Shown here: positions 3,001-25,886 of the stretch, in pieces
Numbering within the stretch: position 1 is the first letter of the stretch
Layout of the letters: the number at the start of each line of letters is the position of its first letter
NCBI RefSeq assembly: GCF_964204645.1
Contig: NC_134030.1
Location: 14,074,110 to 14,138,109, forward strand
Reading direction: 5' to 3'
DNA from: Tubulanus polymorphus
Lineage: Eukaryota > Animalia > Nemertea
DNA: 64,000 bases
Program-made: the position numbers and the translations under genes
Notes under the pieces: generated by a model
The model's database searches: none
Seen by the model: the letters and a program-made list of their open reading frames with translations, nothing else
What the model was told of the DNA's origin: nothing

Positions 3001-6000
3001 CGACGGGAAAAGCACATTTCGAACCGAAAACGTCGTTCAGCGCGAGAAAAGACGTTTACTCATCGAGTTTTCCCCATATCGAAAAAATGAAAATGCCGAT
3101 ACGCAAAAGCGCTCAAATCGACGGGAAAAGCACATTTCGATACATTTCGACCCGAAAACGTCGTTCAGCGCGAGAAAAGACGTTTTCTCATCAAGTTTTC
3201 CCCGTATCGAAAAAATGAAAATGTCGATACGCAAAAGCGCTCAAATCGACTGGAAAAGCACATTTCGATACATTTCGACCCGAAAACGTCGTTCAGCGCG
3301 AGAAAAGACGTTTACTCATCGAGTTTTTTCCGTATCGAAAAAATGAAAATGCCGATACGCAAAAGCGCTCAAATCGACGGGAAAGCACATTTCGACCCGA
3401 AAACGTCGTTCAGCGCGAGAAAAGACGTTTTCTCATCAGATCTTTTCCGTATCGAAAAAATGAAAATGTCGACACGCAAAAGCGCTCCAACTGACGGGAA
3501 AATCACATTTCGACCCGTAAACGCCGTTCAGCGCTAGAAAAGACGTTTTCTCATCAAGTTCTCCCCGTATCGAAAAAATGAAATTGTCGATGCGCAAAAG
3601 CGCTCAAATCGACGGAAAAAGCACATTTCGACCCGAAAACGTCGTTCAGCGCGAGAAAAGACGTTTTCTCATCAGATCTTCTCCGTATCGAAAAAATGAA
3701 AATGTCGACACGCAAAAGCGCTCCAATCGACGGGAAAAGCACATTTCGACCCGAAAACGTCGTTCAGCGCGAGAAAAGACGTTTTCTCATCAGATCTGCT
3801 CCGTATCGAAAAATTGAAATTGTCGATGCGCAAAAGCGCTCAAATCGACGGAAAAAGCACATTTCGACACATTTCGACCCAAAAACGTCGTTCAGCGCGA
3901 GAAAAGACGTTTTCTCATCAAGTTTTCCTCGTATCGAAAAAATGAAAATGCCGATACGCAAAAGCGCTAAAATCGACGGGAAAAGCACATTTCGACCCGT
4001 AAACGTCGTTCAGCGCTAGAAAAGACGTTTTCTTATCAAGTTTTCCCCGTATCGAAAAAATGAAAATGTCGATGCGCAAAAGCGCTCACATCGACGGGAA
4101 AAGCACATTTCGACCCAGAAACGTCGTTCAGCGCGAGAAAAGACGTTTTCTCATCAAGTTTTCCCAGTATCGAAAAAATGAAAATGTCGAAGCGCAAAAG
4201 CGCTCAAATCGACGGGAAAATCACATTTCGAACCGAAAACGTCGTTCAGCGCGAGAAAAGACGTTTACTCATCGAGTTTTCCCCGTATCGAAAAAATGAA
4301 AATGCCGTTACGCAAAAGCGCTCCAATCGACGGGAAAAGCACATTTCGATACATTTCGACCCGAAAACGTCGTTCAGCGCGAGAAAAGACCTTTTCTCAT
4401 CAAGTTTTCTCCGTATCGAAAAAATGAAATTGTCGATGCGCAAAAGCGCTCAAATCGACGGGAAAAGCACATTTCGACCCAGAAACGTCGTTCAGCGCGA
4501 GAAAAGACAAGTTTTCCCCGTATCGAAAAAATGAAATTGTCGATGCGCAAAAGCGCTCAAATCGACGGAAAAAGCACATTTCGACCCGAAAACGTCGTTC
4601 AGCGCGAGAAAAGACGTTTTCTCATCAGATCTTCTCCGTATCGAAAAAATGAAAATGTCGACACGCAAAAGCGCTCCAATCGACGGGAAAAGCACATTTC
4701 GACCCGAAAACGTCGTTCAGCGCGAGAAAAGACGTTTTCTCATCAGATCTTCTCCGTATCGAAAAAATGAAATTGTCGATGCGCAAAAGCGCTCAAATCG
4801 ACGGAAAAAGCACATTTCGACACATTTCGACCCAAAAACGTCGTTCAGCGCGAGAAAAGACGTTTTCTCATCAAGTTTTCCCCGTATCGAAAAAATGAAA
4901 ATGTCGACACGCAAAAGCGCTCCAATCGACGGGAAAATCACATTTCGACCCGTAAACGCCGTTCAGCGCTAGAAAAGACGTTTTCTCATCAAGTTCTCCC
5001 CGTATCGAAAAAATGAAATTGTCGATGCGCAAAAGTGCTCAAATCGACGGAAAAAGCACATTTCGACACATTTCGACCCAAAAACGTCGTTCAGCGCGAG
5101 AAAAGACGTTTTCTCATCAAGTTTTCCCCGTATCGAAAAAATGAAAATGTCGACACGCAAAAGCGCTCCAATCGACGGGAAAATCACATTTCGACCCGTA
5201 AACGCCGTTCAGCGCTAGAAAAGACGTTTTCTCATCAAGTTCTCCCCGTATCGAAAAAATGAAATTGTCGATGCGCAAAAGCGCTCAAATCGACGGGAAA
5301 ATCACATTTCGTCCCGTAAACGCCGTTCAGCGCTAGAAAAGACGTTTTCTCATCAAGTTCTCCCCGTATCGAAAAAATGAAATTGTCGATGCGCAAAAGC
5401 GCTCAAATCGACGGAAAAAGCACATTTCGACCCGAAAACGTCGTTCAGCGCGAAAAAAGACGTTTTCTCATCAAGTTCTCCCCGTATCGAAAAATGAAAA
5501 TGTCGATACGCAAAAGCGCTCAAATCGACGGGAAAAGCACATTTCGATACATTTCGACCCCAAAACGTCGTTCAGCGCGAGAAAAGACGTTTTCTCATCG
5601 AGTTTTCCCCGTATCGAAAAAATTAAAATGTCGATGCGCAAAAGTGCTCAAATCGAGGGGAGAAGCATATTTCGACCCAAAAACGTCGTTCAGCGCGAGA
5701 AAAGACGTTTTCTCATCAAGTTTTCCACGTATCGAAAAAATGAAAATGTCGAAGCGCAAAAGCGCTCAAATCGACGGGAAAAGCACATTTCGACACATTT
5801 CGACCCAAAAACGTCGTTCAACGCGAGAAAAGACGTTTTCTCATCGAGTTTTCCACGTATCGAAAAAATGAAAATGTCGAAGCGCAAAAGCGCTCAAATC
5901 GACGGGAAAAGCACCTTTCGACACATTTCGACCCGAAAACGTCGTTCAGCGCGAGAAAAGACGTTTTCTCATCAGATCTTCTCCGTATCGAAAAAATGAA

Positions 6001-9000
6001 AATGTCGACACGCAAAAGCGCTCCAATCGACGGGAAAATCACATTTCGACCCGTAAACGTCGTTCAGCGCTAGAAAAGACGTTTTCTTATCAAGTTTTCC
6101 CCGTATCGAAAAAATGAAAATGTCGATGCGCAAAAGCGCTCAAATCGACGGGAAAAGCACATTTCGAACCGAAAACGTCGTTCAGCGCGAGAAAAGACGT
6201 TTACTCATCGAGTTTTCCCCGTATCGAAAAAATGAAAATGCCGATACGCAAAAGCGCTCAAATCGACGGGAAAAGCACATTTCGATACATTTCGACCCGA
6301 AAACGTCGTTCAGCGCGAGAAAAGACGTTTTCTCATCAAGTTTTCCCCGTATCGAACAAATGAAAATGTCGATACGCAAAAGCGCTCAAATCGACTGGAA
6401 AAGCACATTTCGATACATTTCGACCCGAAAACGTCGTTCAGCGCGAGAAAAGACGTTTACTCATCGAGTTTTTTCCGTATCGAAAAAATGAAAATGCCGA
6501 TACGCAAAAGCGCTCAAATCGACGGGAAAAGCACATTTCGACCCGAAAACGTCGTTCAGCGCGAGAAAAGACGTTTTCTCATCAGATCTTCTCCGTATCG
6601 AAAAAATGAAAATGTCGACACGCAAAAGCGCTCCAATCGACGGGAAAATCACATTTCGACCCGTAAACGCCGTTCAGCGCTAGAAAAGACGTTTTCTCAT
6701 CAAGTTCTCCCCGTATCGAAAAAATGAAATTGTCGATGCGCAAAAGCGCTCAAATCGACGGAAAAAGCACATTTCGACCCGAAAACGTCGTTCAGCGCGA
6801 GAAAAGACGTTTTCTCATCAGATCTTCTCCGTATCGAAAAAATGAAAATGTCGACACGCAAAAGCGCTCCAATCGACGGGAAAAGCACATTTCGACCCGA
6901 AAACGTCGTTCAGCGCTAGAAAAGACGTTTTCTCATCAAGTTCTCCCCGTATCGAAAAAATGAAAATGCCGATACGCAAAAGCGCTAAAATCGACGGGAA
7001 AAGCACATTTCGACCCGTAAACCTCGTTCAGCGCTAGAAAAGACGTTTTCTTATCAAGTTTTCCCCGTATCGAAAAAAATGAAAATGTCGATGCGCAAAA
7101 GCGCTCACATCGACGGGAAAAGCACATTTCGACCCAGAAACGTCGTTCAGCGCGAGAAAAGACGTTTTCTCATGAAGTTTTCCCCGTATCGAAAAATGAA
7201 AATGTCGATACGCAAAAGCGCTCAAATCGACGGGAAAAGCACATTTCGATACATTTCGACCCGAAAACGTCGTTCAGCGCGAGAAAAGACGTTTTCTCAT
7301 CGAGTTTTCCCCGTATCGAAAAAATGAAAATGTCGATGCGCAAAAGCGCTCAAATCGAGGGGAGAAGCATATTTCGACACATTTCGACCCGAAAACGTCG
7401 TTCAGCGCGAGAAAAGACGTTTTCTCATCGAGTTTTCCACGTATCGAAAAAATGAAAATGTCGAAGCGCAAAAGCGCTCAAATCGACGGGAAAAGCACCT
7501 TTCGACACGTTTCGACCCGAAAACGTCGTTCAGCGCGAGAAAAGACGTTTTCTCATCAGATCTTCTCCGTATCGAAAAAATGAAAATGTCGACACGCAAA
7601 AGCGCTCCAATCGACGGGAAAATCACATTTCGACCCGTAAACGTCGTTCAGCGCTAGAAAAGACGTTTTCTTATCAAGTTTTCCCCGTATCGAAAAAATG
7701 AAAATGTCGATGCGCAAAAGCGCTCAAATCGACGGGAAAAGCACATTTCGAACCGAAAACGTCGTTCAGCGCGAGAAAAGACGTTTACTCATCGAGTTTT
7801 CCCCGTATCGAAAAAATGAAAATGCCGATACGCAAAAGCGCTCAAATCGACGGGAAAAGCACATTTCGATACATTTCGACCCGAAAACGTCGTTCAGCGC
7901 GAGAAAAGACGTTTTCTCATCAAGTTTTCCTCGTATCGAACAAATGAAAATGTCGATACGCAAAAGCGCTCAAATCGACTGGAAAAGCACATTTCGATAC
8001 ATTTCGACCCGAAAACGTCGTTCAGCGCGAGAAAAGACGTTTACTCATCGAGTTTTTTCCGTATCGAAAAAATGAAAATGCCGATACGCAAAAGCGCTCA
8101 AATCGACGGGAAAAGCACATTTCGACCCGAAAACGTCGTTCAGCGCGAGAAAAGACGTTTTCTCATCAGATCTTCTCCGTATCGAAAAAATGAAAATGTC
8201 GACACGCAAAAGCGCTCCAATCGACGGGAAAATCACATTTCGACCCGTAAACGCCGTTCAGCGCTAGAAAAGACGTTTTCTCATCAAGTTCTCCCCGTAT
8301 CGAAAAAATGAAATTGTCGATGCGCAAAAGCGCTCAAATCGACGGAAAAAGCACATTTCGACCCGAAAACGTCGTTCAGCGCGAGAAAAGACGTTTTCTC
8401 ATCAGATCTTCTCCGTATCGAAAAAATGAAAATGTCGACACGCAAAAGCGCTCCAATCGACGGGAAAAGCACATTTCGACCCGAAAACGTCGTTCAGCGC
8501 TAGAAAAGACGTTTTCTCATCAAGTTCTCCCCGTATCGAAAAAATGAAAATGCCGATACGCAAAAGCGCTAAAATCGACGGGAAAAGCACATTTCGACCC
8601 GTAAACCTCGTTCAGCGCTAGAAAAGACGTTTTCTTATCAAGTTTTCCCCGTATCGAAAAAATGAAAATGTCGATGCGCAAAAGCGCTCACATCGATGGG
8701 AAAAGCACATTTCGACCCAGAAACGTCGTTCAGCGCGAGAAAAGACGTTTTCTCATGAAGTTTTCCCCGTATCGAAAAATGAAAATGTCGATACGCAAAA
8801 GCGCTCAAATCGACGGGAAAAGCACATTTCGATACATTTCGACCCGAAAACGTCGTTCAGCGCGAGAAAAGACGTTTTCTCATCGAGTTTTCCCCGTATC
8901 GAAAAAATGAAAATGTCGATGCGCAAAAGCGCTCAAATCGAGGGGAGAAGCATATTTCGACCCAAAAACGTCGTTCAGCGCGAGAAAAGACGTTTTCTGA

Positions 9001-12000
9001 TCAAGTTTTCCACGTATCGAAAAAATGAAAATGTCGAAGGGCAAAAGCGCTCAAATCGACGGGAAAAGCACATTTCGACACATTTCGACCCAAAAACGTC
9101 GTTCAGCGCGAGAAAAGACGTTTTCTCATCGAGTTTTCCACGTATCGAAAAAATGAAAATGTTGAAGCGCAAAAGCGCTCAAATCGACGGGAAAAGCACC
9201 TTTCGACACATTTCGACCCGAAAACGTCGTTCAGCGCGAGAAAAGACGTTTTCTCATCAGATCTTCTCCGTATCGAAAAAATGAAAATGTCGACACGCAA
9301 AAGCGCTCAAATCGACGGGAAAATCACATTTCGACCCATAAACGTCGTTCAGCGCTAGAAAAGACGTTTTCTTATCAAGTTTTCCCCGTATCCAAAAAAT
9401 GAAAATGTCGATACGCAAAAGCCCTCAAATCGACGGGAAAAGCACATTTCGAACCGAAAACGTCGTTCAGCGCGAGAAAAGACGTTTACTCATCGAGATT
9501 TCCCCGTATCGAAAAAAATGAAAATGCCGATACGCAAAAGCGCTCAAATCGACGGGAAAAGCACATTTCGAACCGAAAACGTCGTTCAGAGCGAGAAAAG
9601 ACGTTTTCTCATCAAGTTTTCTCCGTATCGAAAAAATGAAATTGTCGATGCGCAAAAGCGCTCAAATCGACGGGAAAAGCACATTTCGACACGTTTCGAC
9701 CCAAAAACGTCGTTACGCGCGAGAAAAGACGTTTTCTCATCGAGTTTTCCACGTATCGAAAAAATGAAAATGTCGAAGCGCAAAAGCGCTCAATTCGACG
9801 GGAAAAGCACCTTTCGACACATTTCGACCCGAAAACGTCGTTCAGCGCGAGAAAAGACGTTTTCTCATCAGATCTTCTCCGTATCGAAAAAATGAAAATG
9901 TCGACACGCAAAAGCGCTCACATCGACGGAAAAAGCAGATTTCGACCCAGAAACGTCGTTCAGCGCGAGAAAAGACGTTTTGTCATCAAGTTTTCCCAGT
10001 ATCGAAAAAATGAAAATGTCGAAGCGCAAAAGCGCTCAAATCGACGGGAAAAGCACATTTTGAACCGAAAACGTCGTTCAGCGCGAGAAAAGACGTTTAC
10101 TCATCGAGTTTTCCCCGTATCGAAAAAATGAAAATGCCGATACGCAAAAGCGCTCAAATCGACGGGAAAAGCACATTTCGACCAAGAAACGTCGTTCAGC
10201 GCGAGAAAAGACAAGATTTCCCCGTATCGAAAAAATGAAATTGTCGATGCGCAAAAGCGCTCAAATCGACTGGAAAAGCACATTTCGACACATTTCGACC
10301 CAAAAACGTCGTTCAGCGCGAGAAAAGACGTTTTCTCATCGAGTTTTCCACGTATCGAAAAAATGAAAATGTCGAAGCGCAAAAGCGCTCAAATCGACGG
10401 GAAAAGCACCTTTCGACACATTTCGACCCGAAAACGCCGTTCAGTGCGAGAAAAGACGTTTTCTCATCGAGTTTTCCACGTATCGAAAAAATGAAAATGT
10501 CGAAGCGCAAAAGCGCTCAAATCGACGGGAAAAGCATATTTCGACCCAAAAACGTCGTTCAGCGCGAGAAAAGACGTTTTCTCATCAAGTTTTCCACGTA
10601 TCGAAAAAATGAAAATGTCGAAGCGCAAAAGCGCTCAAATCGACGGGAAAAGCACATTTCGACACATTTCGACCCAAAAACGTCGTTCAGCGCGAGAAAA
10701 GACGTTTTCTCATCGAGTTTTCCACGTATCGAAAAAATGAAAATGCCGATACGCAAAAGCGCTCAAATCGACGGGAAAAGCACATTTCGATACATTTCGA
10801 CCCGAAAACGTAGTTCAGCGCGAGAAAAGACGTTTCCTCATCAAGTTTTCCCCGTATCGAAAAAATGAAAATGTCGATACGCAAAAGCGCTCAAATCGAC
10901 GGGAAAAGCACATTTCGACCCGAAAACGTCGTTCAGCGCGAGAAAAGACGTTTTCTCATCAGATCTTCTCCGTATCGAAAAAATGAAAATGTCGATACGC
11001 AAAAGCGCTCAAATCGACGGGAAAAGCACATTTCGATACATTTCGACCCGAAAACGTCGTTCAGCGCGAGAAAAGACGTTTACTCATCGAGTTTTTTCCG
11101 TATCGAAAAAATGAAAATGCCGATACGCAAAAGCGCTCAAATCGACGGGAAAAGCACATTTCGACCCGAAAACGTCGTTCAGCGCGAGAAAAGACGTTTT
11201 CTCATCAGATCTTCTCCGTATCGAAAAAATGAAAATGTCGACACGCAAAAGCGCTCCAATCGACGGGAAAATCACATTTCGACCCGTAAACGCCGTTCAG
11301 CGCTAGAAAAGACGTTTTCTCATCAAGTTCTCCCCGTATCGAAAAAATGAAATTGTCGATGCGCAAAAGTGCTCAAATCGACGGAAAAAGCACATTTCGA
11401 CACATTTCGACCCAAAAACGTCGTTCAGCGCGAGAAAAGACGTTTTCTCATCAAGTTTTCCCCGTATCGAAAAAATGAAAATGCCGATGCGCAAAAGCGC
11501 TCAAATCGACGGAAAAAGCACATTTCGACCCGAAAACGTCGTTCAGCGCGAGAAAAGACGTTTTCTCATCAGATCTTCTCCGTATCGAAAAAATGAAAAT
11601 GTCGACACGCAAAAGCGCTCCAATCGACGGGAAAAGCACATTTCGACCCGTAAACGCCGTTCAGCGCTAGAAAAGACGTTTTCTCATCAAGTTCTCCCCG
11701 TATCGAAAAAATGAAATTGTCGATGCGCAAAAGCGCTCAAATCGACGGAAAAAGCACATTTCGACCCGAAAACGTCGTTCAGCGCGAAAAAAGACGTTTT
11801 CTCATCAAGTTTTCCCCGTATCGAAAAATGAAAATGTCGATACGCAAAAGCGCTCAAATCGACGGGAAAAGCACATTTCGATACATTTCGACCCGAAAAC
11901 GTCGTTCAGCGCTAGAAAAGACGTTTTCTCATCAAGTTCTCCCCGTATCGAAAAAATGAAATTGTCGATGCGCAAAAGCGCTCAAATCGACGGCAAAAGC

Positions 12001-15000
12001 ACATTTCGACCCGAAAACGTCGTTCAGCGCGAGAAAAGACGTTTTCTCATCAGATCTTCTCCGTATCGAAAAAATGAAAATGTCGACACGCAAAAGCGCT
12101 CCAATCGACGGGAAAAGCACATTTCGACCCGTAAACGCCGTTCAGCGCTAGAAAAGACGTTTTCTCATCAAGTTCTCCCCGTATCGAAAAAATGAAATTG
12201 GCGATGCGCAAAAGCGCTCAAATCGACGGAAAAAGCACATTTCGACCCGAAAACGTCGTTCAGCGCGAGAAAAGACGTTTTCTCATCGAGTTTTCCCCGT
12301 ATCGAAAAAATGAAAATGTCGATGCGCAAAAGTGCTCAAATCGAGGGGAGAAGCATATTTCGACCCAAAAACGTCGTTCAGCGCGAGAAAAGACGTTTTC
12401 TCATCAAGTTTTCCGCGTATCGAAAAAATGAAATTGTCGAAGCGCAAAAGCGCTCAAATCGACGGGAAAAGCACATTTCGACACGTTTCGACCCAAAAAC
12501 GTCGTTCAGCGCGAGAAAAGACGTTTTCTCATCGAGTTTTCCACGTATCGAAAAAATGAAAATGTCGAAGCGCAAAAGCGCTCAATTCGACGGGAAAAGC
12601 ACCTTTCGACACATTTCGACCCGAAAACGTCGTTCAGCGCGAGAAAAGACGTTTTCTCATCAGATCTTCTCCGTATCGAAAAAATGAAAATGTCGACACG
12701 CAAAAGCGCTCCAATCGACGGGAAAATCACATTTCGACCCGTAAACGTCGTTCAGCGCTAGAAAAGACGTTTTCTTATCAAGTTTTCCCCGTATCGAAAA
12801 AATGAAAATGTCGATGCGCAAAAGCGCTCAAATCGACGGGAAAAGCACATTTCGAACCGAAAACGTCGTTCAGCGCGAGAAAAGACGTTTACTCATCGAG
12901 TTTTCCCCGTATCGAAAAAATGAAAATGCCGATACGCAAAAGCGCTCAAATCGACGGGAAAAGCACATTTCGATACATTTCGACCCGAAAACGTCGTTCA
13001 GCGCGAGAATAGACGTTTTCTCATCAAGTTTTCCCCGTATCGAACAAATGAAAATGTCGATACGCAAAAGCGCTCAAATCGACGGGAAAAGCACATTTCG
13101 ATACATTTCGACCCGAAAACGTCGTTCAGCGCGAGAAAAGACGTTTACTCATCGAGTTTTTTCCGTATCGAAAAAATGAAAATGCCGATACGCAAAAGCG
13201 CTCAAATCGACGGGAAAAGCACATTTCGACCCGAAAACGTCGTTCAGCGCGAGAAAAGTCGTTTTCTCATCAGATCTTCTCCGTATCGAAAAAATGAAAA
13301 TGTCGACACGCAAAAGCGCTCCAATCGACGGGAAAATCACATTTCGACCCGTAAACGCCGTTCAGCGCTAGAAAAGACGTTTTCTCATCAAGTTCTCCCC
13401 GTATCGAAAAAATGAAATTGTCGATGCGCAAAAGCGCTCAAATCGACGGAAAAAGCACATTTCGACCCGAAAACGTCGTTCAGCGCGAGAAAAGACGTTT
13501 TCTCATCAGATCTTCTCCGTATCGAAAAAATGAAAATGTCGACACGCAAAAGCGCTCCAATCGACGGGAAAAGCACATTTCGACCCGAAAACGTCGTTCA
13601 GCGCTAGAAAAGACGTTTTCTCATCAGATCTTCTCCGTATCGAAAAAATGAAATTGTCGATGCGCAAAAGCGCTCAAATCGACGGAAAAAGCACATTTCG
13701 ACACATTTCGACCCAAAAACGTCGTTCAGCGCGAGAAAAGACGTTTTCTCATCAAGTTTTCCCCGTATCGAAAAAATGAAAATGCCGATACGCAAAAGCG
13801 CTCAAATCGACGGGAAAAGCACATTTCGACCCGTAAACGTCGTTCAGCGCTAGAAAAGACGTTTTCTTATCAAGTTTACCCCGTATCGAAAAAATGAAAA
13901 TGTCGATGCGCAAAAGCGCTCACATCGACGGAAAAAGCAGATTTCGACCCAGAAACGTCGTTCAGCGCGAGAAAAGACGTTTTGTCATCAAGTTTTCCCA
14001 GTATCGAAAAAATGAAAATGTCGAAGCGCAAAAGCGCTCAAAATCGACGGGAAAAGCACATTTTGAACCGAAAACGTTGTTCAGCGCGAGAAAAGACGTT
14101 TACTCATCGAGTTTTCCCCGTATCGAAAAAAATGAAAATGCCGATACGCAAAAGCGCTCAAATCGACGGGAAAAGCACATTTCGATACATTTCGACCCGA
14201 AAACGTCGTTCAGCGCGAGAATAGACGTTTTCTCATCAAGTTTTCCCCGTATCGAACAAATGAAAATGTCGATATGCAAAAGCGCTCAAATCGACGGGAA
14301 AAGCACATTTCGATACATTTCGACCCGAAAACGTCGTTCAGCGCGAGAAAAGACGTTTTCTCATCAGATCTTCTCCGTATCGAAAAAATGAAAATGTCGA
14401 CACGCAAAAGCGCTCCAATCGACGGGAAAATCACATTTCGACCCGTAAACGCCGTTCAGCGCTAGAAAAGACGTTTTCTCATCAAGTTTTCCCAGTATCG
14501 AAAAAATGAAAATGCCGATACGCAAAAGCGCTCAAATCGACGGGAAAAGCACATTTCGATACATTTCGACCCGAAAACGTCGTTCAGCGCGAGAAAAGAC
14601 GTTTTCTCATCGAGTTTTCCCCGTATCGAAAAAATGAAAATGTCGATGCGCAAAAGCGCTCAAATCGAGGGGAGAAGCATATTTCGACCCAAAAACGTCG
14701 TTCAGGGCGAGAAAAGACGTTTTCTCATCAAGTTTTCCACGTATCGAAAAAATGAAAATGTCGAAGCGCAAAAGCGCTCAAATCGACGGGAAAAGCACAT
14801 TTCGACACAATTCGACCCAAAAACGTCGTTCAGCGCGAGAAAAGACGTTTTCTCATCGAGTTTTCCACGTATCGAAAAAATGAAAATGTCGAATCGCAAA
14901 AGCGCTCAAATCGACGGGAAAAGCACCTTTCGACACATTTCGACCCGAAAACGTCGTTCAGCGTGAGAAAAGACGTTTACTCATCGAGTTTTCCCCGTAT

Positions 15001-15701
15001 CGAAAAAATGAAAATGCCGATACGCAAAAGCGCTCAAATCGACGGAAAAAGCACATTTCGACCCGAAAACGTCGTTCAGCGCGAGAAAAGACGTTTTCTC
15101 ATCAGATCTTCTCCGTATCGAAAAAATGAAAATGTCGACACGCAAAAGCGCTCCAATCGACTGGAAAATCACATTTCGACCCGTAAACGCCGTTTAGCGC
15201 TAGAAAAGACGTTTTCTCATCAAGTTCTCCCCGTATCGAAAAAATGAAATTGTCGATGCGCAAAAGCGCTCAAATCGACGGAAAAAGCACATTTCGACCC
15301 GAAAACGTCGTTCAGCGCGAAAAAAGACGTTTTCTCATCAAGTTTTCCCCGTATCGAAAAATGAAAATGTCGATACGCAAAAGCACTCAAATCGACGGGA
15401 AAAGCACATTTCGATACATTTCGACCCGAAAACGTCGTTCAGCGCGAGAAAAGACGTTTTCTCATTGAGTTTTCCCCGTATCGAAAAAATGAAAATGTCG
15501 ATGCGCAAAAGCGCTCAAATCGAGGGGAGAAGCATATTTCGACCCAAAAACGTCGTTCAGCGCGAGAAAAGACGTTTTCTCATCAAGTTTGCCACGTATC
15601 GAAAAAATGAAAATTTCGAAGCGCAAAAGCGCTCAAATCGACGGGAAAAGCACATTTCGACACATTTCGACCCAAAAACGTCGTTCAGCGCGAGAAAAGA
15701 C
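1..15701. repeat. Tandem satellite DNA array, 118-bp monomer with a 128-bp variant (10-bp ACATTTCGAY duplication); roughly 130 monomers; runs off the left edge of the window
   Basis: The unit CGTCGTTCAGCGCGAGAAAAGACGTTTTCTCATC...CGTATCGAAAAAATGAAAATGTCGA...CAAAAGCGCTCAAATCGACGGGAAAAGCACATTTCGACCCGAAAA repeats continuously and stops abruptly at ...GAGAAAAGAC (15701). Confidence 0.99.
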
Positions 15702-16310
15702 AATAATTCCTGGTAAAGCTGCAGCAGATTTTTTAGATAGTTCCCATAAATATTTTGCTAATTTCTTTAAACCATCTTTAATTTTATCTTGTATAGAATC
15801 ATTCGGGGGTTTATCCGGTTTATTGGGAGTAGGAGTAGATTTCAAAGAATTTGATATTGCTAAACCAATTGTTGTAAATAACATAGTTACAGCTGTTAGA
15901 ATTGAAAGAATTGTTATTCCTTCTAATTTAAATAATAACTTTATTCTATCTTTCAATGATATTTCAGAATTTGGTTTAATCAACAAATCTTTAAAAATAA
16001 CTTTTGAAAATGCTAAAGGTCCAACGTCTTCATCATTTATGTTAAGTTTGGAATTTTCAATTATACGTTCTAATTTAGGTATTTTGTTTAAATTATCTAA
16101 ATCTTTTTTTACTAAATCTGGGTCTAAATTTTCAGGATTTAATTGTGATTCTGCATTTTTAATATAATCAGGCATATTTAAATTATTATTATATTCTGGC
16201 TCATTACCGTCATTAAAACTTGTTTCACTAAAATCAGGCGGTTGTTCTTCAGTTATGCCAGGTTCATCTAAAGGATCCATTCCAATTTCTTCTCCACCTT
16301 CTACATCCAT
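15702..16310 (-). pseudogene. Viral predicted membrane protein, C-terminus truncated by the satellite
   Basis: Acidic N-terminus, hydrophobic segment EGITILSILTAVTMLFTTIGLAI, Pro-rich linker, amphipathic helix ending ALPGII at the junction. The rest of the ORF-track translation (to 15633) is satellite read-through. Confidence 0.7.
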
Positions 16311-16329
16311 TTATATAATAAAAAAATTA
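16308..16329 (-). promoter_or_regulatory. Shared viral promoter-like cassette TAA-T7-ATTATA-TAAATG
   Basis: Read on the minus strand; one of 8 copies. Confidence 0.75.
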
Positions 16330-17648
16330 AAATTTAAAATATAATATTCCTCCTATAACAATTCCTATACAAGTTAAAGCTAATTTAGTATTAAAATGGA
16401 ATTTATTATCATTATCAGTTTTAATTATATCATGTTGAATATTATCAGTTTTAATATTTTCTGATGAATTATGATCCGGTTTAGAATCACTATTTAATTT
16501 AATATTCTTAGTTTAGTTTCTGTTGATTGAATATGTTTTTTATTTTTTTCACCTTCCATTAATTTTGGAGCAGTAATAATCTTTTTATTTATATCATTTA
16601 ATCCAAATGAATTATTTATTGTTGCAGTTTTAATTAGATTATTGTAACCAATGATGTTTCCCATCTTTAATACTAAATCATTAGAAATAATTAATAGATT
16701 AGGGCCTATACAATAATTTAATCTAATATGTGATTTATCTAAATAATTTTGATATCTTACAATGTTTTCTGGAATCGATCTATTTTTATCATCATGAATA
16801 GAATCTTCAAATAATACTTTGAATTGTTTCTGTGCATCGAATGAAGTGTTATCATTTCCAATTATTGGGGATCTTGTTTCAACTTGTGCACCTAGAATAC
16901 ATATCAAATAAGTTCTAATTGATTGATTTATTCTTTGTATTCCAGCTTTAGTAAAACCTTCACCATTTTCTAAAATGAAATTAACCCAACCATTATGGTT
17001 TTGTTGTTGTATATTATTATAACATTTTGGTAATTCATTCCAATTTAGTGTTCTTATATCTGAATTTGTCATTATTTTTCCAAATTCTTTAGTATATAAT
17101 ATTCCGAATCCACCCATTGTTCCAATTTTTGCTCTAAAATCTTTATTTGAATTAATATTAAATTCATTACATATTTTATAAAACTTAGAAAAATTAATAT
17201 TATTATTTAGTTCTTTAAAATATTTTGAACCTGGTAAAGGACATTCTAATTCATCTAATATTAATTTTATTTGAAAATATGTATGAAATCTAAAAAGTGA
17301 TAACATCAATGGTAAACTTGGTTTGTTTAAATGATCATTCCAACTAATTCCGCATCCTGTTCTTGCGCAATAAACAGCAAAATTTAATTGGTTCTGCCAA
17401 TACTTCATATTAGATTTTAATAACCATTGTTTTGCCTCATTTAAATTTTTGAAATTAATTGTATACACATGAAATATATTTTCCATCTTTACATGAAAAT
17501 TATTACTTTCAGTAACATAAATATATAAATCAATTAATGAATTTAAAACTTCATTTCTATATGTAATATCTTTATTAAAATCTATTGCTGGAATATTATA
17601 TTTAATTGATTTATTATATTGGAAAGCTTTTGGAAAACTATCTACCAT
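16327..17648 (-). pseudogene. Viral ~440-aa protein with C-terminal membrane anchor (frameshift near 16510)
   Basis: 384-aa ORF (WQNQLNFAVYCARTGCG motif) continues in another frame as ...KFHFNTKLALTCIGIVIGGILYFKF*, with its stop at 16327-16329 inside the shared intergenic motif. Confidence 0.7.
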
Positions 17649-17667
17649 TTATATAACAAAAAAATTA
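17646..17667 (-). promoter_or_regulatory. Shared viral promoter-like cassette TAA-T7-GTTATA-TAAATG
   Basis: Read on the minus strand; one of 8 copies. Confidence 0.75.
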
Positions 17668-18099
17668 ATAATTTATTAATTCTTTTAATAATTTATCTTG
17701 TTCTTCAACTGTTATATGACCATTTAAACTTATTAGTGTATCTAATGTATTCTTTAATTTATTAATTTCTTTTATATTAGTTTTAATTTTTTCTTTATTA
17801 CTTTTTATATTCAATTTTGAACTTATACCAGTTAAAACACTTGAACTTAATCCTAATACACCAATTGATATAGCTAAAGGTGTTAATGGTGAGAATATTG
17901 CAAGAAATGTTATTACAGAACTAATTGTAACTGAACCACTAATAATAAGATAATATATAATTTTACTTTTTAAATATTTTTTCTTTTTAACTTTTAAATC
18001 ATTTTCAAATTCTAATATTTGTTTTTCTAAATATATTTTTAATTTAGTTTTATTTATATCATGAGGAATAATATCAATACTATCAACTTTATCTTCCAT
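17665..18099 (-). CDS. Viral 144-aa protein: coiled coil, two hydrophobic helices, coiled coil
   Basis: Intact ORF with hydrophobic stretches IIYYLIISGSVTISSVITFLAIF and LAISIGVLGLSSSVLTGI; flanked by the shared motif. Confidence 0.75.
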   Translation of the reverse strand: MEDKVDSIDIIPHDINKTKLKIYLEKQILEFENDLKVKKKKYLKSKIIYYLIISGSVTISSVITFLAIFSPLTPLAISIGVLGLSSSVLTGISSKLNIKSNKEKIKTNIKEINKLKNTLDTLISLNGHITVEEQDKLLKELINY

Positions 18100-18118
18100 T
18101 TTTTTAGAAAAAAAATTA
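18097..18118 (-). promoter_or_regulatory. Shared viral promoter-like cassette, variant TAA-T8-CTAAAAAAATG
   Basis: Same 22-nt spacing, with AAAATG in place of TAAATG. Confidence 0.6.
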
Positions 18119-18540
18119 CTAATTAGTAAAGTTATATGCTACAAATATAACAATAAATGTTCCGCCTAAAATCCAAATTATTTCATATTTCTGCTGTTCC
18201 TTACTTGGGGTATAATAATCTGATATTGTAGGTTTATGTAGATGTAATTTTTCTTTATTGGTTACCGCGTTATATAAACTCATTGCATCATCGACTGATT
18301 GAAAATCTCTATGTGAAATCTTCTGATCATATAATTCCTTGTTATGTAATCCATATAGTTTTGTCTCTTTTCTCTATATTCTTCCGCTGCTTTATTGTAT
18401 TTCTCTAAAGCTATGTTATGTCTTTTTTGTTCTTCTAATGAACTATTTTTATCTATATGCCTAAATAAATAACTACCGCCAGTAAATGCTAAAGCGTTAG
18501 CAATTGCCGATCCTATAATAGTTATAACTGCAGAAGCCAT
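18119..18540 (-). pseudogene. Viral protein with N-terminal hydrophobic helix, coiled coil and C-terminal hydrophobic tail (frameshifted)
   Basis: MASAVITIIGSAIANALAFTGGSYLF...EEQKRHNIALEK; downstream frames give SDYYTPSKEQQKYE and WILGGTFIVIFVAYNFTN*. Confidence 0.65.
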
Positions 18541-18559
18541 TTATTTAGCAAAAAAATTA
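18538..18559 (-). promoter_or_regulatory. Shared viral promoter-like cassette TAA-T7-GCTAAA-TAAATG
   Basis: The TAA here is not the upstream stop codon, which is at 18565. Confidence 0.75.
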
Positions 18560-18564
18560 TGCAT

Positions 18565-18786
18565 TTATATGGGAGGAATATATTTTTGTTTTTCCAAATA
18601 ATCAATAGTTAAATTAGATAAAGTAACTGCTAATGTTAATTTTAAAATATAATTTATATCAAATCTATCAACATTAACACTTCCCATTTTAAATACTTTT
18701 TTTAATACCATTGAATAACCACCAGTTCCAACTGATAGTAATGCTCCATTATATATTCCAGTTATTATCCACTTATTATCACTCAT
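18565..18786 (-). CDS. Viral small hydrophobic protein (73 aa)
   Basis: Intact ORF preceded by the shared motif; two moderately hydrophobic segments. Confidence 0.65.
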   Translation of the reverse strand: MSDNKWIITGIYNGALLSVGTGGYSMVLKKVFKMGSVNVDRFDINYILKLTLAVTLSNLTIDYLEKQKYIPPI

Positions 18787-18805
18787 TTATTTATCAAAAA
18801 AATTA
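18784..18805 (-). promoter_or_regulatory. Shared viral promoter-like cassette TAA-T7-GATAAA-TAAATG
   Basis: Embedded in the last codons of the upstream ORF. Confidence 0.75.
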
Positions 18806-19128
18806 CTATCATCAAAATATTTAGTTATCTTAGTGATGATTAATTCAACATTTATTTCATTACTACTTTTATGATTATCATATATTTTGGATAATATGTT
18901 TTTAATATCATCGATAATTCCACCTTTATTTAATTCATAATATTCTAAAGACGTTTTGATTAAATCAATTACTTTTTCTATATTATAATTTTCTTTATTA
19001 ATCATTGATGCATTGTTAAATGATTTACTTTTTATATCAGTAATTACATCATTTAGTTTAATTCTCATTTCTTTACCATGTTTAAAATCAAACTCAAAAC
19101 ATATACTCGGTCCAACAGTTATATTCAT
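18787..19128 (-). CDS. Viral hypothetical protein (113 aa)
   Basis: Intact ORF with TAAATG start inside the shared motif; abuts the next gene. Confidence 0.6.
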   Translation of the reverse strand: MNITVGPSICFEFDFKHGKEMRIKLNDVITDIKSKSFNNASMINKENYNIEKVIDLIKTSLEYYELNKGGIIDDIKNILSKIYDNHKSSNEINVELIITKITKYFDDSNFFDK

Positions 19129-19148
19129 TTATATAGTGAAAAAAATTA
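19126..19148 (-). promoter_or_regulatory. Shared viral promoter-like cassette TAA-T7-CACTATA-TAAATG
   Basis: Read on the minus strand; one of 8 copies. Confidence 0.75.
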
Positions 19149-19904
19149 CTCTCTACATCTTATAACTAATTCATAAATTACAGGGAAATTATTTAAATCA
19201 ATTAAGTATCCATTATGATTTCTAATTTCTAACCTAAAATTATTAAAACGAGGAATGCATGGTTTGAAATCACATTCTGTTAAATTATAATTTATTTGCG
19301 TTCCAAATTCTTTAACATTCTTCAATGGTAAAATGTTTAATAAACCAGAATTACAAGTTATATCTTTAGTTGCTTCGAATGTTTTTGTAGGATTGATTAA
19401 ATTGCAATAAATATAAAAATGCGTGTAAGGTATTAAGTTTGGTGTAGCATCAACATTTGAATAAAGTTTATCTGGTGTAATTCCTAATAGTTTAGCAATA
19501 GGTTTTTTAACTAAAAATTGATATTTTTCTTGATTAGTTAACCTTATCTTAATTTTATCAGAACTATCACTTTTTAAAAATCTAATACTAAACCCGGAAT
19601 TAGTACCTAATTTGTGCCAGGCTTTTCTATTAATTTCTTGAGATAATGTATCTAAATTATATAACCCTGGTTTTAGAAATAGAGGATACCATTTATTTTT
19701 ATTTTTGTTAATAACTGCAAAACCACTATGATCAATAGTTTTATCCGTTATATTATAAAAAGAATTACATAAACTCAAATTAACTAATTTTAAATCAACA
19801 CAATTCTTAAATTATCTATCTAATTGTACTTGTAAATTATGTGATTTATAATTTGTAAGTCTTCTTGAATCAACAAATATTCTGTATTCTTTTAATTCTA
19901 CCAT
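19146..19904 (-). pseudogene. Penton-like minor capsid protein (single jelly-roll), one in-frame TAA at 19812-19814
   Basis: The likely start is ATG 19904: MVELKEYRIFVDSRR...QLDR*FKNCVDLKLVNLSLCNSFYNIT...HFYIYCNLI...GLLNILPL...LEIRNHNGYLIDLNNFPVIYELVI. This pattern fits Polinton/NCLDV minor capsid proteins. Confidence 0.75.
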
Positions 19905-19926
19905 TATTTATAACATAAAAAAATTA
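19902..19926 (-). promoter_or_regulatory. Shared viral promoter-like cassette TAA-T7-ATGTTA-TAAAT-AATG (penton gene)
   Basis: There is no upstream co-oriented gene, so the motif is not merely a stop or terminator. Confidence 0.7.
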
Positions 19927-19972
19927 CCGCTCATCACTAAAAATTAATTTTAATAAAATTGTTCCTTAATAA

Positions 19973-21285
19973 ATGGATGAGAAGATAGCATGTGAAATTT
20001 GTGGTGAACTTCTAAGAAAAAGTAATATGGCTCGACATATGAAAAAACATGATGAAAATTATAAACCCCCTAAACAAAACTGTCCAAAATGTAATAAATT
20101 ATTCTCAAGAAATTATGTTAAAAAACATTCAGAGAAGTGTAAAATTAATGGTGCAACGGCTAATGTTGATAGTAATGAAAGTAATAGTAATTCTGTTGAA
20201 GTTGAACCTGAAATTATTTGGAAAAGACCTTTCTTATTCTATGATAAGGATGATATAAAAGATCATTTCTGCGAGCCTTGTCGAATAAAATATAGCCCTG
20301 AAAATATAGAAGATTGGGAGAATCATCAATTTCGTAAAGCACATATAGATAAAATTTCTAATAAATTTGAAACTGAATTCAATGAAAGAAAAAATAATTT
20401 ATTAGAAAAAATAAAATATGAGAAAACGTTACCAGATAATTAAGAAACAGTTGAAAAGTTAGAAAAACAATATAATGAATTAACAAGAAAAACATATTAT
20501 TGTAAATATTGTAAATTGATTATTACAACAAGTAATTCAAATCTACATAATAGAACAATAAAACATAAAGAAAACGTAAGAAAAAACCAAGAGCTTAATG
20601 AAAATCTATTACCAAGAAATTATAAACAAAAATGCCCACAATGTAATTACGCGACCTTAAGACAAGAAGGTACTGTGTTATTTTGTGTTGATTGTGGATG
20701 GCAAAAGAATTTATGGGGTGAAGAAAAAACTAGAAATTTTCTCAAAATTAATCCAAAATTAAATTATCTAGATGAAATTTTTAAAATATTTTCTATAGAA
20801 GATCATACACCAGAATATATGCAATGGCTTGAAAAAATGAAAATAATAGAAAATAAAAATGGTGAAATAACTAAAAAAGATATTATAAAAACAATTATTC
20901 CGTCAACATTTAACACAAAACAAAAGAAAATGTATTTATATTTATTATTTAACGATTATTATGAAAAACCTAAATTAACAGAAGAAGATATGGAAAATAT
21001 AAAAAAAATATTTAAACAAATATTAATGTATCATTTGGAAAATAGAATAACAGATTCATTAAATTATGAATTCTTTTTAATTTAAACATCGATATTATAA
21101 TTCCATTTGATGAATTAACGAACAAAAAGAAACAAAGAGAGCGAGATGAAATGTGGAATAATATAACACGTAATTTAAATGAGAAAAATGAAATGGAAGA
21201 ACCTAAACAAATTATACAAGAACAATTAAATGAAAAAGAAGAAACCAATAGTGATTTCGAGTTTGATGATATTGATACATTTTAA
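19973..21285 (+). pseudogene. Viral multi-zinc-finger protein broken by two frameshifts (near 20440 and 21080)
   Basis: CEIC..RHMKKH, CPKC..KKHSEKC, CEPC..HQFRKAH, YYCKYC..HNRTIKH, CPQC..FCVDCGW; acidic tail ...DFEFDDIDTF*; TAAATG start. Confidence 0.7.
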
Positions 21286-24200
21286 TAACCATAAGGTAAT
21301 GTTTTTATACCATCATCTGAAATATGTCTTTTATCATCAAATGGATTTAAACTAGTTTTTTCAACTTCATTAATGTACATCTCGTGATCTTCTGATCTTA
21401 AACAATTCATTTTATTTTTCATTACAATTGAGTTATATAAACACTTTATATAATCTTGAAATTCTATATGTTTATCAACATTCTTCAAATTCTTCATTAT
21501 ATTTTATAGCAAAATCTTTAGGATTATTCACATGTATTCTATAACATTGCGATGATTTCATAACATCTATGATTTTGAATGTTTTATGTGAATAAACTTC
21601 TTCACAGAATTTCTTTATTCTTTCTAATAATTTCAAATCTTGATTGCATAAATACCAGCAATATTGAGTGCGATTAACATAATTATACACACCTGCTGAA
21701 CCATCTCCCATGAAAAATCCTTTGATAAAATATTCTTTTTCTTCTAATGTTTCGGGTTCTATATTATAAATATTATCAATAATTTCATCAAATGACATAT
21801 GATTCATTCTTTGGAAAAATCTTTTATGTAATAATTCATCTCCAATTTTTATATCAGTTGGTTTTATTTCATCACCATTTCGTTTAATTAAATTATGATC
21901 TTCTGTAACATCTACAAACCCTAATTTAGTTCTAACTCTATAGATTTTCTTATTTGTTTTATGCCTAATAATATTCTTTAATTTTTTCCATCCATTTCTT
22001 GTTCAAACATCCATTAATCCATTTATTTGTATTAATTCTTTTTCACCATATGAAATATAACATTCATTTTGTTTTGGAATTATTTCTGAAATTCTTCTTA
22101 TCAATATTTTATCATTACATTTTAATAATATTGGGGTGTCAGCTGTTACAGAATCAAAATATAATATTTCAATATGCTTTTCCCCAAAAAGTGGTTGTAA
22201 AACATTATAATAAAAATCATACATTAATAATTTTGATACTTCTAAAACAGTTGAACCAATGAATATAGGTTTATTAAATTTCATTGACGTTCTTTTTAAT
22301 TTTCCCGCGGTTAAATAATCTTCAAATCTTTTATTTCCTAAATGTCTAGGACTTGATTGTAAATGTCTTAATCTTTCAGAATTATTTACTAATTCAATAT
22401 CATTTCTATTTCTAATATTTTCACATGTTTTTCCATAAAAACTATTGTTCATTAATTTGAAGAAATCTTTTTCAAAATCTGTTTTTGATATGGTTCTCTG
22501 TTGAGTATTGAAATCTATATATTTTTCTAACCACTTCGATTGATTAAATTCAATATATCTATGTACTTTCTTTAATTTCATTCCTTGTTTTACATAAAAT
22601 TTTACCATTCTATAATGAACGATATAAGTGTATTTATTATTTTGACTAAGTATTAATTTTTCTGTAAAAACATGATCTTTCGGTTTTATTTTCTTCTGGT
22701 ATTCACTTAAATAACTATCATCTACAGTTAAATGTTCTGGGCAATAAGGAAAGTTTCTTGTTTTAAACTTTATATTTTCAGGATATTCTAAATCAACTAC
22801 AAAGAAATAACCAATTGGTGCTTCATCTTCTAAACTCATAATTGCGCTTTCCCAATTAGTTTTATCATCATTTTCAACTTCTGTTAATATAAAATTTTTA
22901 TATGGTTGAGGTTGCATCATTGCCCAACCATATAAACTTTTGGCGTCAATATATAATAATTTATATTCATCATTTGCTTTAAAATACCTCCCATAACACC
23001 ACTAATTCCACCTCTAATTTATTTTTCAAATAATAAAACCATATCTGGTTCTTTTAATAAATCTAATTCTACATTTGTATATTTTAAACCACATTGCCAG
23101 GTTAAACCAGGACTAGAGTAGCAATAACAAGGATCAACATTAAAATGATTCAAATTAACTTCTCTAAATTTTTCAAATATGTCAGCCAATTTCATAACAT
23201 CTGATTTTTAAATATAATTCAACTAATTCACCATGATTTTTCATCTTAAAATGGTTCCAAATATTTAATGTTCTATTAAACACTTCGTCTTTCACATACT
23301 CCTCTTTTAATTGATCATAAAATTGATCTTTTAATAATTCTGTTACATTAAAATCATTGTGTGTTTTATAAAATGAATAAGGAATTGCGCCTTTATATCT
23401 CAATAATTTAGAATCTTGGTCATTTGGATAATAATATCGAGTTATAACGAAATCATTATCAACTAAACTTTTTGATAAATTATCTAATGAACTTGCTAGA
23501 AATCTATAAGAGTCTAAAAATCTAATGCAACCAAATTGAAATGAAATATAATTTTCAGATGTTTAAGCTAATAGTTTAAAATCATATTTTCTTACATTTA
23601 CACCATTCATAGCATTATATTCTTCTATTTCTTGATTAATTGAACCCAATTTTCCTGATAATTGTTTTATAAATAGATGGGTATCATAGCCTGATAAATT
23701 ATGAAATAAAATTGGTACGAAATTAACTTTCTTAGCTTGTAAATTGCAATCTTCATGAGCAGCTCCACGATATTTTGAATTTAAATGATTATGATCTCTA
23801 ACTTTTTTATCAAATGAATAAAAATGTTTTTCACAATAACAACAATGAGTTGCATAATTAAAATCAATTTCATCTTCTTTTGTCATAACTATTCTTTTAT
23901 TTTTGTTTAATAATTTTGCAAAATCACTTTCTAATTCAATCATTTTGTTACAAAAATCATCAACTACATCTTCACCTCTAAAAGAAATATATTGACTTTC
24001 ATATAATTCAGGATAATTTGATTTCATATAAATTCCATAAGCTGCAGCTCTTTGATGAACTTTTTTAATTGTATTTATAATTGGTGGATCCTGTGTTGTG
24101 TCTTCATTTAATTCATTTCCTTTATCCATTGATTTTAATAATTGCTTTTTGTTATATATTTCTTTTCTATCTTGATCAGTTAATTCTTTATTCAACGATT

Positions 24201-25700
24201 CAAAATCCCCATAAATTACAAATGGAACAATATTCTTAAATTTATGATTAGTAAATTTCAATTTATAATCTTTTTCTGTTGGCATTATTAATTTACAAAA
24301 ATCTTTATTATCACATAATTCTTTATGTTTTAGTAATGTATTCTCAGTCATAAATTTAGATAAACATTTTCTACATAGATAAATTTTACGATGATGATCA
24401 CTTTCTGTTCTAAAGAATAAATCAATTTGTTTTAACCACATATAATGTTCATTTTCATCTTTTTTGTAATATAACAAATCTATAGCATTTTCATCATCAT
24501 AATATTCTGTTAAATATAAAGCTTTCAATGTATAATCTTTAATATTTTCACCTTTTGTCTTTGGTAATTGCATTAATTCGAATACATTTATTTTTAAATT
24601 ATTAACTTTTTCTATTTTAAAAATCATTTTTATAGTTACTGGATATTGATCAATTTTATATAATGTTTCATATTTCCGGTAATTTGTTATTCTAAAACTA
24701 TGTGTAATATCTTCTGTTGGATGTAAGCAACTAATAATTGCCCACAGAAAACATTTATAATCTTCATTTTGAACATTTATTACTGCTTTTGTTGTAAATG
24801 GTAATTTAATATAAGATGATCCTTTAATATCCTCCTTTTCTGTTGTAAAGTTTGAATCATTTTAAAACATTTTATTACTTTTTGATGTTTTATTTCTTTT
24901 TGTATTATAAACATTTAAATCTAAAAATATAATTTCATTTAATGATAAACCAGAACCCTCAAAATATCTTTCTTCAATATGACGTTTAAATTCATTAAAT
25001 ATTTTTTCTAACTTCTCTTTTATTTGCGTTTTTGAAATTATTTCTTCAGAGAGTGTTTGAATATTATAATCCATTTTCTCTTCTGACTTTAAAAAACTTA
25101 CTTTCCCAGAGATACTAATTTTTGGATATTCAACATCTGTTATCAAATCTAGTATTTTTCTCTTATTTCATTAAATTTACTATAATCTTCTATTGTTGTA
25201 CCTTTAAAAAATCTAAATGTAATAGCTGCAGGACCAATTTTATTACGTAATGTTTCTAATATTTCAATTGTATCTTTTATTTCTAGTGAATCAATATAAT
25301 TTCTAACATTTTCCATGTAAGGTTTATTTGAAATGGATTTAGTTTTTGAAGTTGGTTTTTTTACTTGTTGAGGTTTATCATCAAAATAATATTTTCCTAA
25401 AACATTATTACTCAAATTTTGATGGTGTTTTTGTGATTCGAGATGTCTATTATAATTCCTTTTTGTTATAAATTCATTACAAACTTCACATTTTATTTCA
25501 TCCACATTCATATTTTCTAATCGTTCTTTTCTTTCATTGGAATTTTCTGAAGTTTCAAAATCTATAACATTTTTTATATGATTTGCTGTTTTTTCATGTC
25601 GTGATTTTTGGGATTTATCAATGTATTTTTTACAATATTGGCAATAATATTGATTTTTATTAACATTATTGTTTTCTGGCTGGTGTTCATTCTCCCCCAT
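21282..25700 (-). pseudogene. polB: Protein-primed family B DNA polymerase (pPolB), intein-interrupted, with many lesions and an internal deletion
   Basis: In order: two Zn fingers; GSSYIKLP...VINVQNEDYKCFLWAI (OTU-like); ExoI VIYGDFES; endonuclease VII CCYC..VRDHNH..YRGAAHEDCN; ExoII HNLSGYD; FLDSYRFL; ExoIII YLK/SDV; IRGG; motif A YIDAKSLYGWAM; motif B KLMNNSFYGKT; motif C YFD|; C-terminal KTSLNPFDDKR..TLPYGY. In-frame stops at 24862, 23563, ~23020 and 22003; frameshifts near 25148, 23207 and 22990. Confidence 0.95.
21490..22152 (-). mobile_element. Intein (HINT N-region plus first LAGLIDADG motif) at the Pol-c site of pPolB; C-terminal half deleted
   Basis: Starts SVTADTPILLK immediately after YFD; V*TRNGWKKLKNIIRHKTNKKIYRV; block B VDVTEDHNL; LAGLIDADG helix FIKGFFMGDGS. 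It stays in frame across the TGA at 22003. Confidence 0.92.
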
Positions 25701-25719
25701 TTATTAGGAAAAAAAATTA
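25698..25719 (-). promoter_or_regulatory. Shared viral promoter-like cassette TAA-T8-CCTAA-TAAATG (polB)
   Basis: Precedes the polB ATG at 25700; no upstream ORF. Confidence 0.75.
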
Positions 25720-25723
25720 CTTG

Positions 25724-25794
25724 TGGTGATGAGTGGTGTCTCGACCGCACGACCTCTGGTATGAAACCCACATCTTCCTATTACTAAGACCACC
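25724..25794 (-). tRNA. Degenerate tRNA-like sequence resembling initiator tRNA-Met
   Basis: 71 nt GGTGGTCTTAGTAATAGGAAGATGTGGGTTTCATACCAGAGGTCGTGCGGTCGAGACACCACTCATCACCA; ends pair 6/7; B-box-like GGTCGAGAC; T8 run follows. The D, anticodon and T stems pair poorly. Confidence 0.35.
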
Positions 25795-25886
25795 TAGTGT
25801 TAATTCACACACAGCACTGAATTGACTGCTGTCCATTGTCACATTCAGAATAACCATCGTTAATAAAAAAAAAAACAAGTAGCCTC

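Follow-up and report, generated by a model that had tools for sequence, protein, structure and literature searches.

We analysed a 64,000-nucleotide stretch of Tubulanus polymorphus DNA (contig NC_134030.1, positions 14,074,110 to 14,138,109, hereafter the window), in which an AT-rich island at 15702 to about 25790 (23.6 % GC vs. 37.8 % in the repeat-rich right flank) is what remains, incomplete and decayed, of one member of a multi-copy Maverick/Polinton family. The lineage of this copy is likely, with a probability that we put at roughly 0.6, an integrating satellite transcribed with the late machinery that a large cytoplasmic DNA virus supplies. An earlier note, made from the sequence alone, had proposed such a dependence for this island from several independent signals. 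Two of them, i.e. the promoter and the intein, stand, and these two point to different virus groups; overall, the number of signals and their independence of one another are smaller than had been claimed.

Of the nine genes in the island, only H is on the plus strand; the other eight (polymerase, G, F, E, D, C, B and A) are on the minus strand. The word TAATTTTTT lies closely upstream of all eight minus-strand starts, and only five more such words occur in the 64 kb. Six of these eight starts read exactly TAAATG, the remaining two being TAAATAATG and TAAAAAAATG. The combined pattern TAATTTTTT-N4-14-AAATG has seven occurrences in the island, whereas 500 order-3 Markov simulations gave 0.18 on average and never more than 3. 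The promoter-like motif of the polymerase gene (T-run + TAAATG) is located at 25698..25719 on the minus strand and the further ones begin at 19926, 19148, 18805, 18559, 18118, 17667 and 16329. ORF H also starts at TAAATG, with an A-rich core in place of the T-run, as does its homologue in the related locus L001; this arrangement recalls, in these two sequences only, the intermediate promoter of PMC5294985. The vaccinia late promoter has the same architecture as the T-run + TAAATG motif (PMC5294985), vaccinia slippage at TAAAT adds a 5' poly(A) leader (PMC6211774) and TAAATG marks many genes of the salmon gill poxvirus (PMC4542343). The promoters had been described as pox-late-like: their form agrees with this, their number is well above chance, and the motif is not exclusive to poxviruses. 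By its sequence, the promoter fits a large-DNA-virus promoter class with no named helper.

Relatives were retrieved by scanning metagenome contigs with an ORF B alignment, and the best 80 of the 225 confirmed loci were used. Starts were counted in the 76 of these 80 loci with usable entries; short ORFs were left out, and so were ORF B starts because TAAATG in some loci comes from the opposite-strand ATPase gene. Conserved starts read TAAATG in 12/15 cases below 25 % GC, in 44/64 cases from 25 to 45 % GC and in 0/122 cases at 45 % GC or above, i.e. in 56 of the 79 starts below 45 % GC vs. none of the 122 above, for a background of 7.5 % of all ATGs. The TAA was the stop codon of the upstream gene in only four of the 56 cases. 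Position -3 was occupied by T at 61/79 starts vs. 14/122 in the GC-rich class, where a purine was present at 90/122. In the mid-GC loci (31-44 % GC), a T-rich core stands at a fixed position, -17 to -14. Base composition does not account for the TAAATG promoter, which turns out to be shared across a clade. A FastTree phylogeny of ORF B (33 rows) grouped all 11 TAAATG loci, the window and the locus L006 in one clade (support 100).

L006 (1-10290, 49 % GC), a sister element, carries a different bipartite motif before many of its starts, namely a T-rich core plus TATA (6/11 starts, 9/399 ATGs and 3/102 in other loci, counts that are descriptive since the pattern was tuned on those starts). This form may point to a different class of helper. 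L006 also encodes a Bcl-2 homologue (7433-7843, E 2e-18) and a VLTF3-like ORF (3242-3748; Pox_VLTF3, E 6e-4, below the cut-off). A third promoter form, in which ATG starts are preceded by a T-run and an A-run, was seen in L019, L028 and L045, which are AT-rich and lie outside the TAAATG clade. Signal depletion was also tested (six motifs in four groups of non-independent loci); no value went beyond |z| 3.4 and the tests were taken as weak (TTTTTNT, 25 vs. 36.7 in TAAATG loci; GTAAGT, 4 vs. 10.4 in other loci and 6 vs. 6.2 in TAAATG loci). AATAAA was not depleted in the coding sequence of the window (47 vs. 44.3), a weak point in favour of a helper.

The Polinton nature of the element, as had been claimed, is borne out by genes of the window and of its relative L001 (19.6 % GC), which is 81 % identical to the window in ORF B and shares its gene order G-F-E-D-C-B-A. 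In the window, the DNA polymerase, which is protein-primed and belongs to family B (21282..25700, minus strand), is broken into eight ORF pieces and displays N-terminal zinc fingers and an endonuclease VII-like insert; it is 34-54 % identical to P0121, a 1693-aa protein-primed polymerase that contains an intein and carries PF03175, the direct match of the window gene to PF03175 being weak. ORF G (19146..19904, minus strand; premature stop at 19812-19814) yielded a predicted model (pLDDT 82.5) whose best named Foldseek matches include the minor capsid protein of mavirus (E 2.5e-7), alongside other pentons, with a Z of 6.3 for the mavirus penton, so the modelled fold is that of a single jelly-roll penton. 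Beyond ORF A, L001 continues with a 415-aa capsid-like gene, an rve integrase with a chromodomain (E 1.5e-10), an A32-like ATPase (E 4.6e-11), a deoxynucleoside kinase and a homologue of ORF H; integrase and ATPase are both absent from the window copy. The 415-aa product resembles capsid clusters by language-model features (0.97-0.98) and has no PDB sequence match, and its counterpart is likewise missing from the truncated window copy. The same core, along with the membrane genes, is found in distant loci of 50-59 % GC, whose ORFs are uninterrupted. This core, common to L001 and the distant loci, identifies the element as a Maverick/Polinton, and from the known range of that family (10.64898/2026.06.19.733378) we infer an animal host. 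In L001, the ATPase gene is separated from the next gene by 326 bases (9084-9410) that are extremely AT-rich and contain internal repeats.

Three further signals had been put forward, each true of the island and none of them discriminating. AT richness without introns is real, yet the GC-rich relatives that lack the promoter also have uninterrupted genes, and base composition spans 20 % to 59 % across the family. RNA polymerase genes are indeed missing, yet this is uninformative: the GC-rich promoterless relatives also lack them (as read from their ORF lists), and the absence is expected because no Polinton is known to encode one (PMC6211774). A membrane-protein cluster is indeed present, each of the ORFs A, B, C and D having hydrophobic segments, yet such genes also occur in relatives without the promoter or are general to Polintons.

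An intein remnant (Hint + LAGLIDADG; 21478..22152, minus strand) interrupts motif C of the polymerase, with one stop and its C-terminal part lost; its domain matches were weak (Hint, E 4e-5; LAGLIDADG, E 0.025). It begins in motif C at the same site as the inteins of RNA-primed polymerases, an insertion site that we take to be of the Pol-c type. Relative to P0121 (residues 1403-1625), the polymerase gene lacks about 220 codons, and a deletion near 21480-21493 has removed the end of the intein and the second half of motif C. The intein has 119 homologues in longer proteins, 99 of them with a recognisable start. In a quick maximum-likelihood tree of 100 inteins, the window and eight other Polinton-type rows formed one clade (support 99), sister to four RNA-primed polymerases (support 96), the whole group being nested among RNA-primed ones. 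Two of these four sisters match giant-virus bins (P0130 at 93 % and P0138 at 100 %), and from gene context the sister polymerases are read as mimivirus-like. The relationship to inteins of nucleocytoplasmic large DNA viruses that had been suggested is thereby upheld. P0132 is Polinton-type by sequence. Besides the P0123 cluster (121 Polinton-type polymerases), the same intein was observed in P0128, whose polymerase type is unrelated to that of the cluster, and its occurrence in two unrelated protein-primed types indicates that it spread among Polintons. On these sequence relationships, the intein shows one transfer between giant viruses and Polintons and does not name a present-day helper. No relative of ORF B, of the intein piece or of P0121 was found in the viral contig collection.

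The multi-copy endogenous state proposed for the element is supported by run X5 (whole-genome reads of another sample with the same species label), in which the island has a depth of about 200-1000 vs. about 7-17 in the thinnest nearby bins, with reads that differ from the island copy at numerous places; depth and differences together point to tens to hundreds of diverged family copies. The window copy is dead, as had been stated: stops or frameshifts interrupt five of its nine genes (polymerase, B, D, G and H), a sixth (A) is truncated, and ORFs C, E and F are intact. On the left, a host satellite array with a 118-bp unit (1..15701, outside the element) cuts the element within ORF A at 15701/15702, and 14 contigs of run X1 show other letters before 15701, i.e. 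other copies run on beyond this point. On the right, other family copies part from the island copy at 25766-25785. No pair of terminal inverted repeats or of 6-bp target-site duplications was seen for the island copy, whose left end is cut by the satellite. The inverted repeats of the right flank (25887-29321) were considered as element termini and rejected, since family depth collapses after 25810; they are nested and long (arms of up to 293 bases) and look like a multi-copy, foldback- or MITE-like host repeat. Summed contig depth in X1 over 16000-26000, which is not a measure of copy number, was 25,000-210,000 over the island vs. about 1,100-15,000 in the right flank, an excess larger than that in X2 or X5, the kind of run being unrecorded for X1. 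The window also contains a host retroelement reverse transcriptase fragment (50666-51628; RVT_1, E 1e-30).

Next to the polymerase promoter lies a GC-richer block (25720..25796, minus strand), part of the multi-copy family, that had been called tRNA-like. The resemblance is by eye only: ARAGORN made no call down to 75 % of its threshold, no Rfam match was found at E values up to 10 and the folding z-score was -0.88, so this claim is abandoned. A tRNA call in L004 at a lowered threshold was discarded because it lies inside a broken gene. X5 depth peaks at about 2100 over 25708-25758 and falls to about 17 after 25810. Some copies carry a tandem duplication of the T-run block of the promoter at 25710-25735 (87 X5 reads), and some contigs connect this block to other downstream sequence.

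The remaining genes are family proteins. ORF A (15702..16310, minus strand), with an acidic start and a hydrophobic helix, is 76 % identical over 103 aa to a 485-aa ORF that directly precedes the capsid-like gene in L001; its family profile had no significant PDB match. ORF B (16327..17648, minus strand; frameshift near 16500) is a conserved protein of about 440 aa in relatives, with a C-terminal membrane anchor and 160 homologues. Its predicted model (pLDDT 87.9) gave no Foldseek match at E 0.001 in PDB or BFVD (best Z 3.9) and no usable Atlas match. The family alignment A1 displays invariant Gln85, Gln87, Asn89, His122 and Asn149, and ORF B occurs in every locus because the search was built on it. 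Some papain-like peptidases among the structural matches (Z 2.2-3.4), together with conserved Gln, Cys and His residues, suggested ORF B as the missing protease, a role that was rejected as too weakly supported; a simple motif scan recognised no adenain-like cysteine protease in the window or in the 80 partial loci. ORF C (17665..18099, minus strand) is an intact 144-aa two-helix membrane protein, 77 % identical to that of L001 and weakly SLATT-like (Pfam SLATT_fungal, E 0.004, below the cut-off). ORF D (18119..18540, minus strand; frameshift near 18340) encodes a small protein with a hydrophobic helix at each end (family of 15 ORFs across loci), ORF E (18565..18786, minus strand) an intact conserved protein of 73 aa (86 % to L001; family of 16 ORFs) and ORF F (18787..19128, minus strand) an intact 113-aa product found only in the closest relatives. 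ORF H (19973..21285, plus strand; one stop and one frameshift) is a multi-zinc-finger protein with a zinc ribbon and a helical C-terminal part, and has intact relatives in P0276 and P0277.

The satellite model predicts a uniform late-type motif, polymerase gene included, together with T at -3, which is what was observed. Under this model, the rve integrase would store the element in the host genome, where it would stay mostly silent between infections because a motif that abuts the ATG and places a T at -3 is consistent neither with the TATA spacing of RNA polymerase II nor with the -3 purine of the GC-rich relatives. Upon infection by the helper, the post-replicative RNA polymerase of the latter would initiate within TAAAT, as in vaccinia, and switch on all genes, that of the DNA polymerase included. 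The protein-primed polymerase would then copy the linear genome, and capsid, penton and A32 ATPase would package the copies. A compartment shared with giant-virus DNA may have let an ancestor acquire the motif-C homing intein. The helper would most likely be pox-type, judging by the form of the promoter, other Nucleocytoviricota being candidates as well. A broader scheme is possible, at odds that we place clearly short of even: a whole clade of animal Mavericks would consist of endogenous virophages that depend on pox-type viruses, as yet unseen, infecting aquatic invertebrates, and the promoters of these Mavericks would record the helper (TAAATG in the clade of the window, an asfarvirus-like T-rich core plus TATA in L006), implying helper switching, with a VLTF3-like factor under an intermediate-type promoter preceding the late genes.

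Several points weigh against dependence on a helper. No helper virus sequence was found, in a search outside which lay the host's own reads. T-run + TAAATG motifs are also present in contigs of other giant viruses and of T4-like phages; 65 loci, each chosen by one motif match, were obtained when viral contigs were scanned, and some giant-virus bins among them have 3-4 TAAATG starts in 4-8 ORFs. The intein sister P0130 most resembles cellular Pol delta, its 59 PDB matches including no poxvirus or asfarvirus chain, and TAAATG was counted at 136/1239 starts in the neighbourhoods of the intein-sister polymerases (0/22 in L148); as the genomes of these delta-like sisters rarely use TAAATG, intein and promoter together name no single helper, and the intein may be an old one that Polintons have exchanged. 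The ORF B tree was flagged for long branches and for composition, and some of the loci are near-duplicates. A family of tens to hundreds of diverged copies implies many germ-line integrations, which are easier for an autonomous element, and hallmark genes of coral polintoviruses are expressed, no helper being mentioned in the accessible part of PMC11131425. Finally, an element-encoded late factor (ORF H or the L006 ORF) is a possible partner of host RNA polymerase II.

This last point leads to the strongest alternative, which we regard as rather unlikely: an autonomous nuclear Maverick in which such a factor of its own steers host RNA polymerase II to a giant-virus-style promoter, the intein being old. 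The high copy number, the helper-free expression in coral and the presence of the intein in two unrelated polymerase types agree with it, as do the weak VLTF3 match of L006, the colinear resemblance of P0276 to true VLTF3 and the occurrence of VLTF3 in other Polinton-like viruses (10.64898/2026.06.19.733378; PMC8502044). The VLTF3 likeness of ORF H itself is by eye only: neither its pieces nor their intact relatives matched VLTF3 (PF04947) in Pfam, and hhalign gave a probability of 0.8 % (score 18.9 vs. 17.0 for the best of 30 shuffles, not significant). Some giant viruses without an RNA polymerase keep VLTF3. Against autonomy, ORF H itself starts at TAAATG, which leaves the window without any gene under a recognisable host-type promoter from which a cascade could begin; T at -3 in most starts is likewise unfavourable, and no TBP or TFIIB match was found among the 16 L001 ORFs scanned.

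It is improbable that the family is a former satellite turned passive repeat, in which promoters and intein would be left over from an earlier helper and present copies would have arisen by transposition or by duplication with satellite DNA, with no reactivation today. The island copy, broken in most genes and adjoining a satellite, would suit this, and so would the many family reads that differ from it; in the unrelated metagenome assemblies of L001-L004, however, ORFs are intact and promoters are the same as in the window, which indicates that the lineage was recently under selection. A chance AT-rich motif, a contaminant or a chimeric assembly is extremely unlikely: no record was shown to bridge the satellite junction and termini were not recognised, but the motif is far above chance and kept up to 44 % GC, and the family is abundant in another sample of the same species label.

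A satellite lifestyle would bear on the open question of whether animal Mavericks are autonomous viruses, transposons or satellites, the split between the TAAATG clade and the clade without it serving to predict from sequence which elements depend on a cytoplasmic helper. If true, it would imply undiscovered pox-type or related viruses in these hosts and possibly a mavirus-like inducible defence in animals.

Among known systems, animal Mavericks/Polintons (Polintoviricetes; adintoviruses, PMC8502044; groups 1 and 2 of 10.64898/2026.06.19.733378) share with the island family the polymerase and penton (window), the rve integrase, A32 ATPase and capsid-like gene (L001), the membrane-protein genes and the multi-copy, endogenous state. 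The island family differs from them by its clade-wide late-type promoters, its full motif-C intein and an ORF B without a fold match, and from adintoviruses and group 1 Mavericks in that no adenain-like protease was recognised in the motif scan of its partial loci. Homing endonuclease inserts in Polinton polymerases have been described as likely intein remnants (PMC11161782). The yeast cytoplasmic linear elements pGKL1/2 (PMC6211774) likewise combine a protein-primed polymerase with a pox-like TAAAN initiator, but have their own RNA polymerase and capping enzyme and no capsid, whereas no such transcription genes were seen in the island family. Mavirus, with its helper CroV, and PgVV (Gezel-14T), with PgV, are likewise integrating elements with a protein-primed polymerase, rve integrase and penton, whose genes bear the helper's promoter, late in mavirus (10.1101/068312) and early in PgVV (10.1101/2022.07.28.501842); they differ by protist hosts, helpers of the mimivirus family, other motifs and a dependence proven by experiment, which is inferred only in the island lineage. 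The best precedent for the proposed lifestyle is that of the entomopoxvirus-associated Polinton-like viruses (PMC11296320), animal viruses linked to a poxvirus of the cytoplasm; they were detected in occlusion bodies, and 4/4 described members carry a cysteine protease gene. The main text of that paper does not contain the terms 'promoter', 'transcription' or 'intein', and two motifs of ORF B and ORF D were absent from the one supplement searched. No paper on a clade-wide TAAATG signature was found in a literature search judged by listings, with most subscription papers and bioRxiv supplements outside its scope. Poxvirus-associated Polinton-like viruses are thus already known, and it is the clade-wide promoter signature of the island family that appears to be new.

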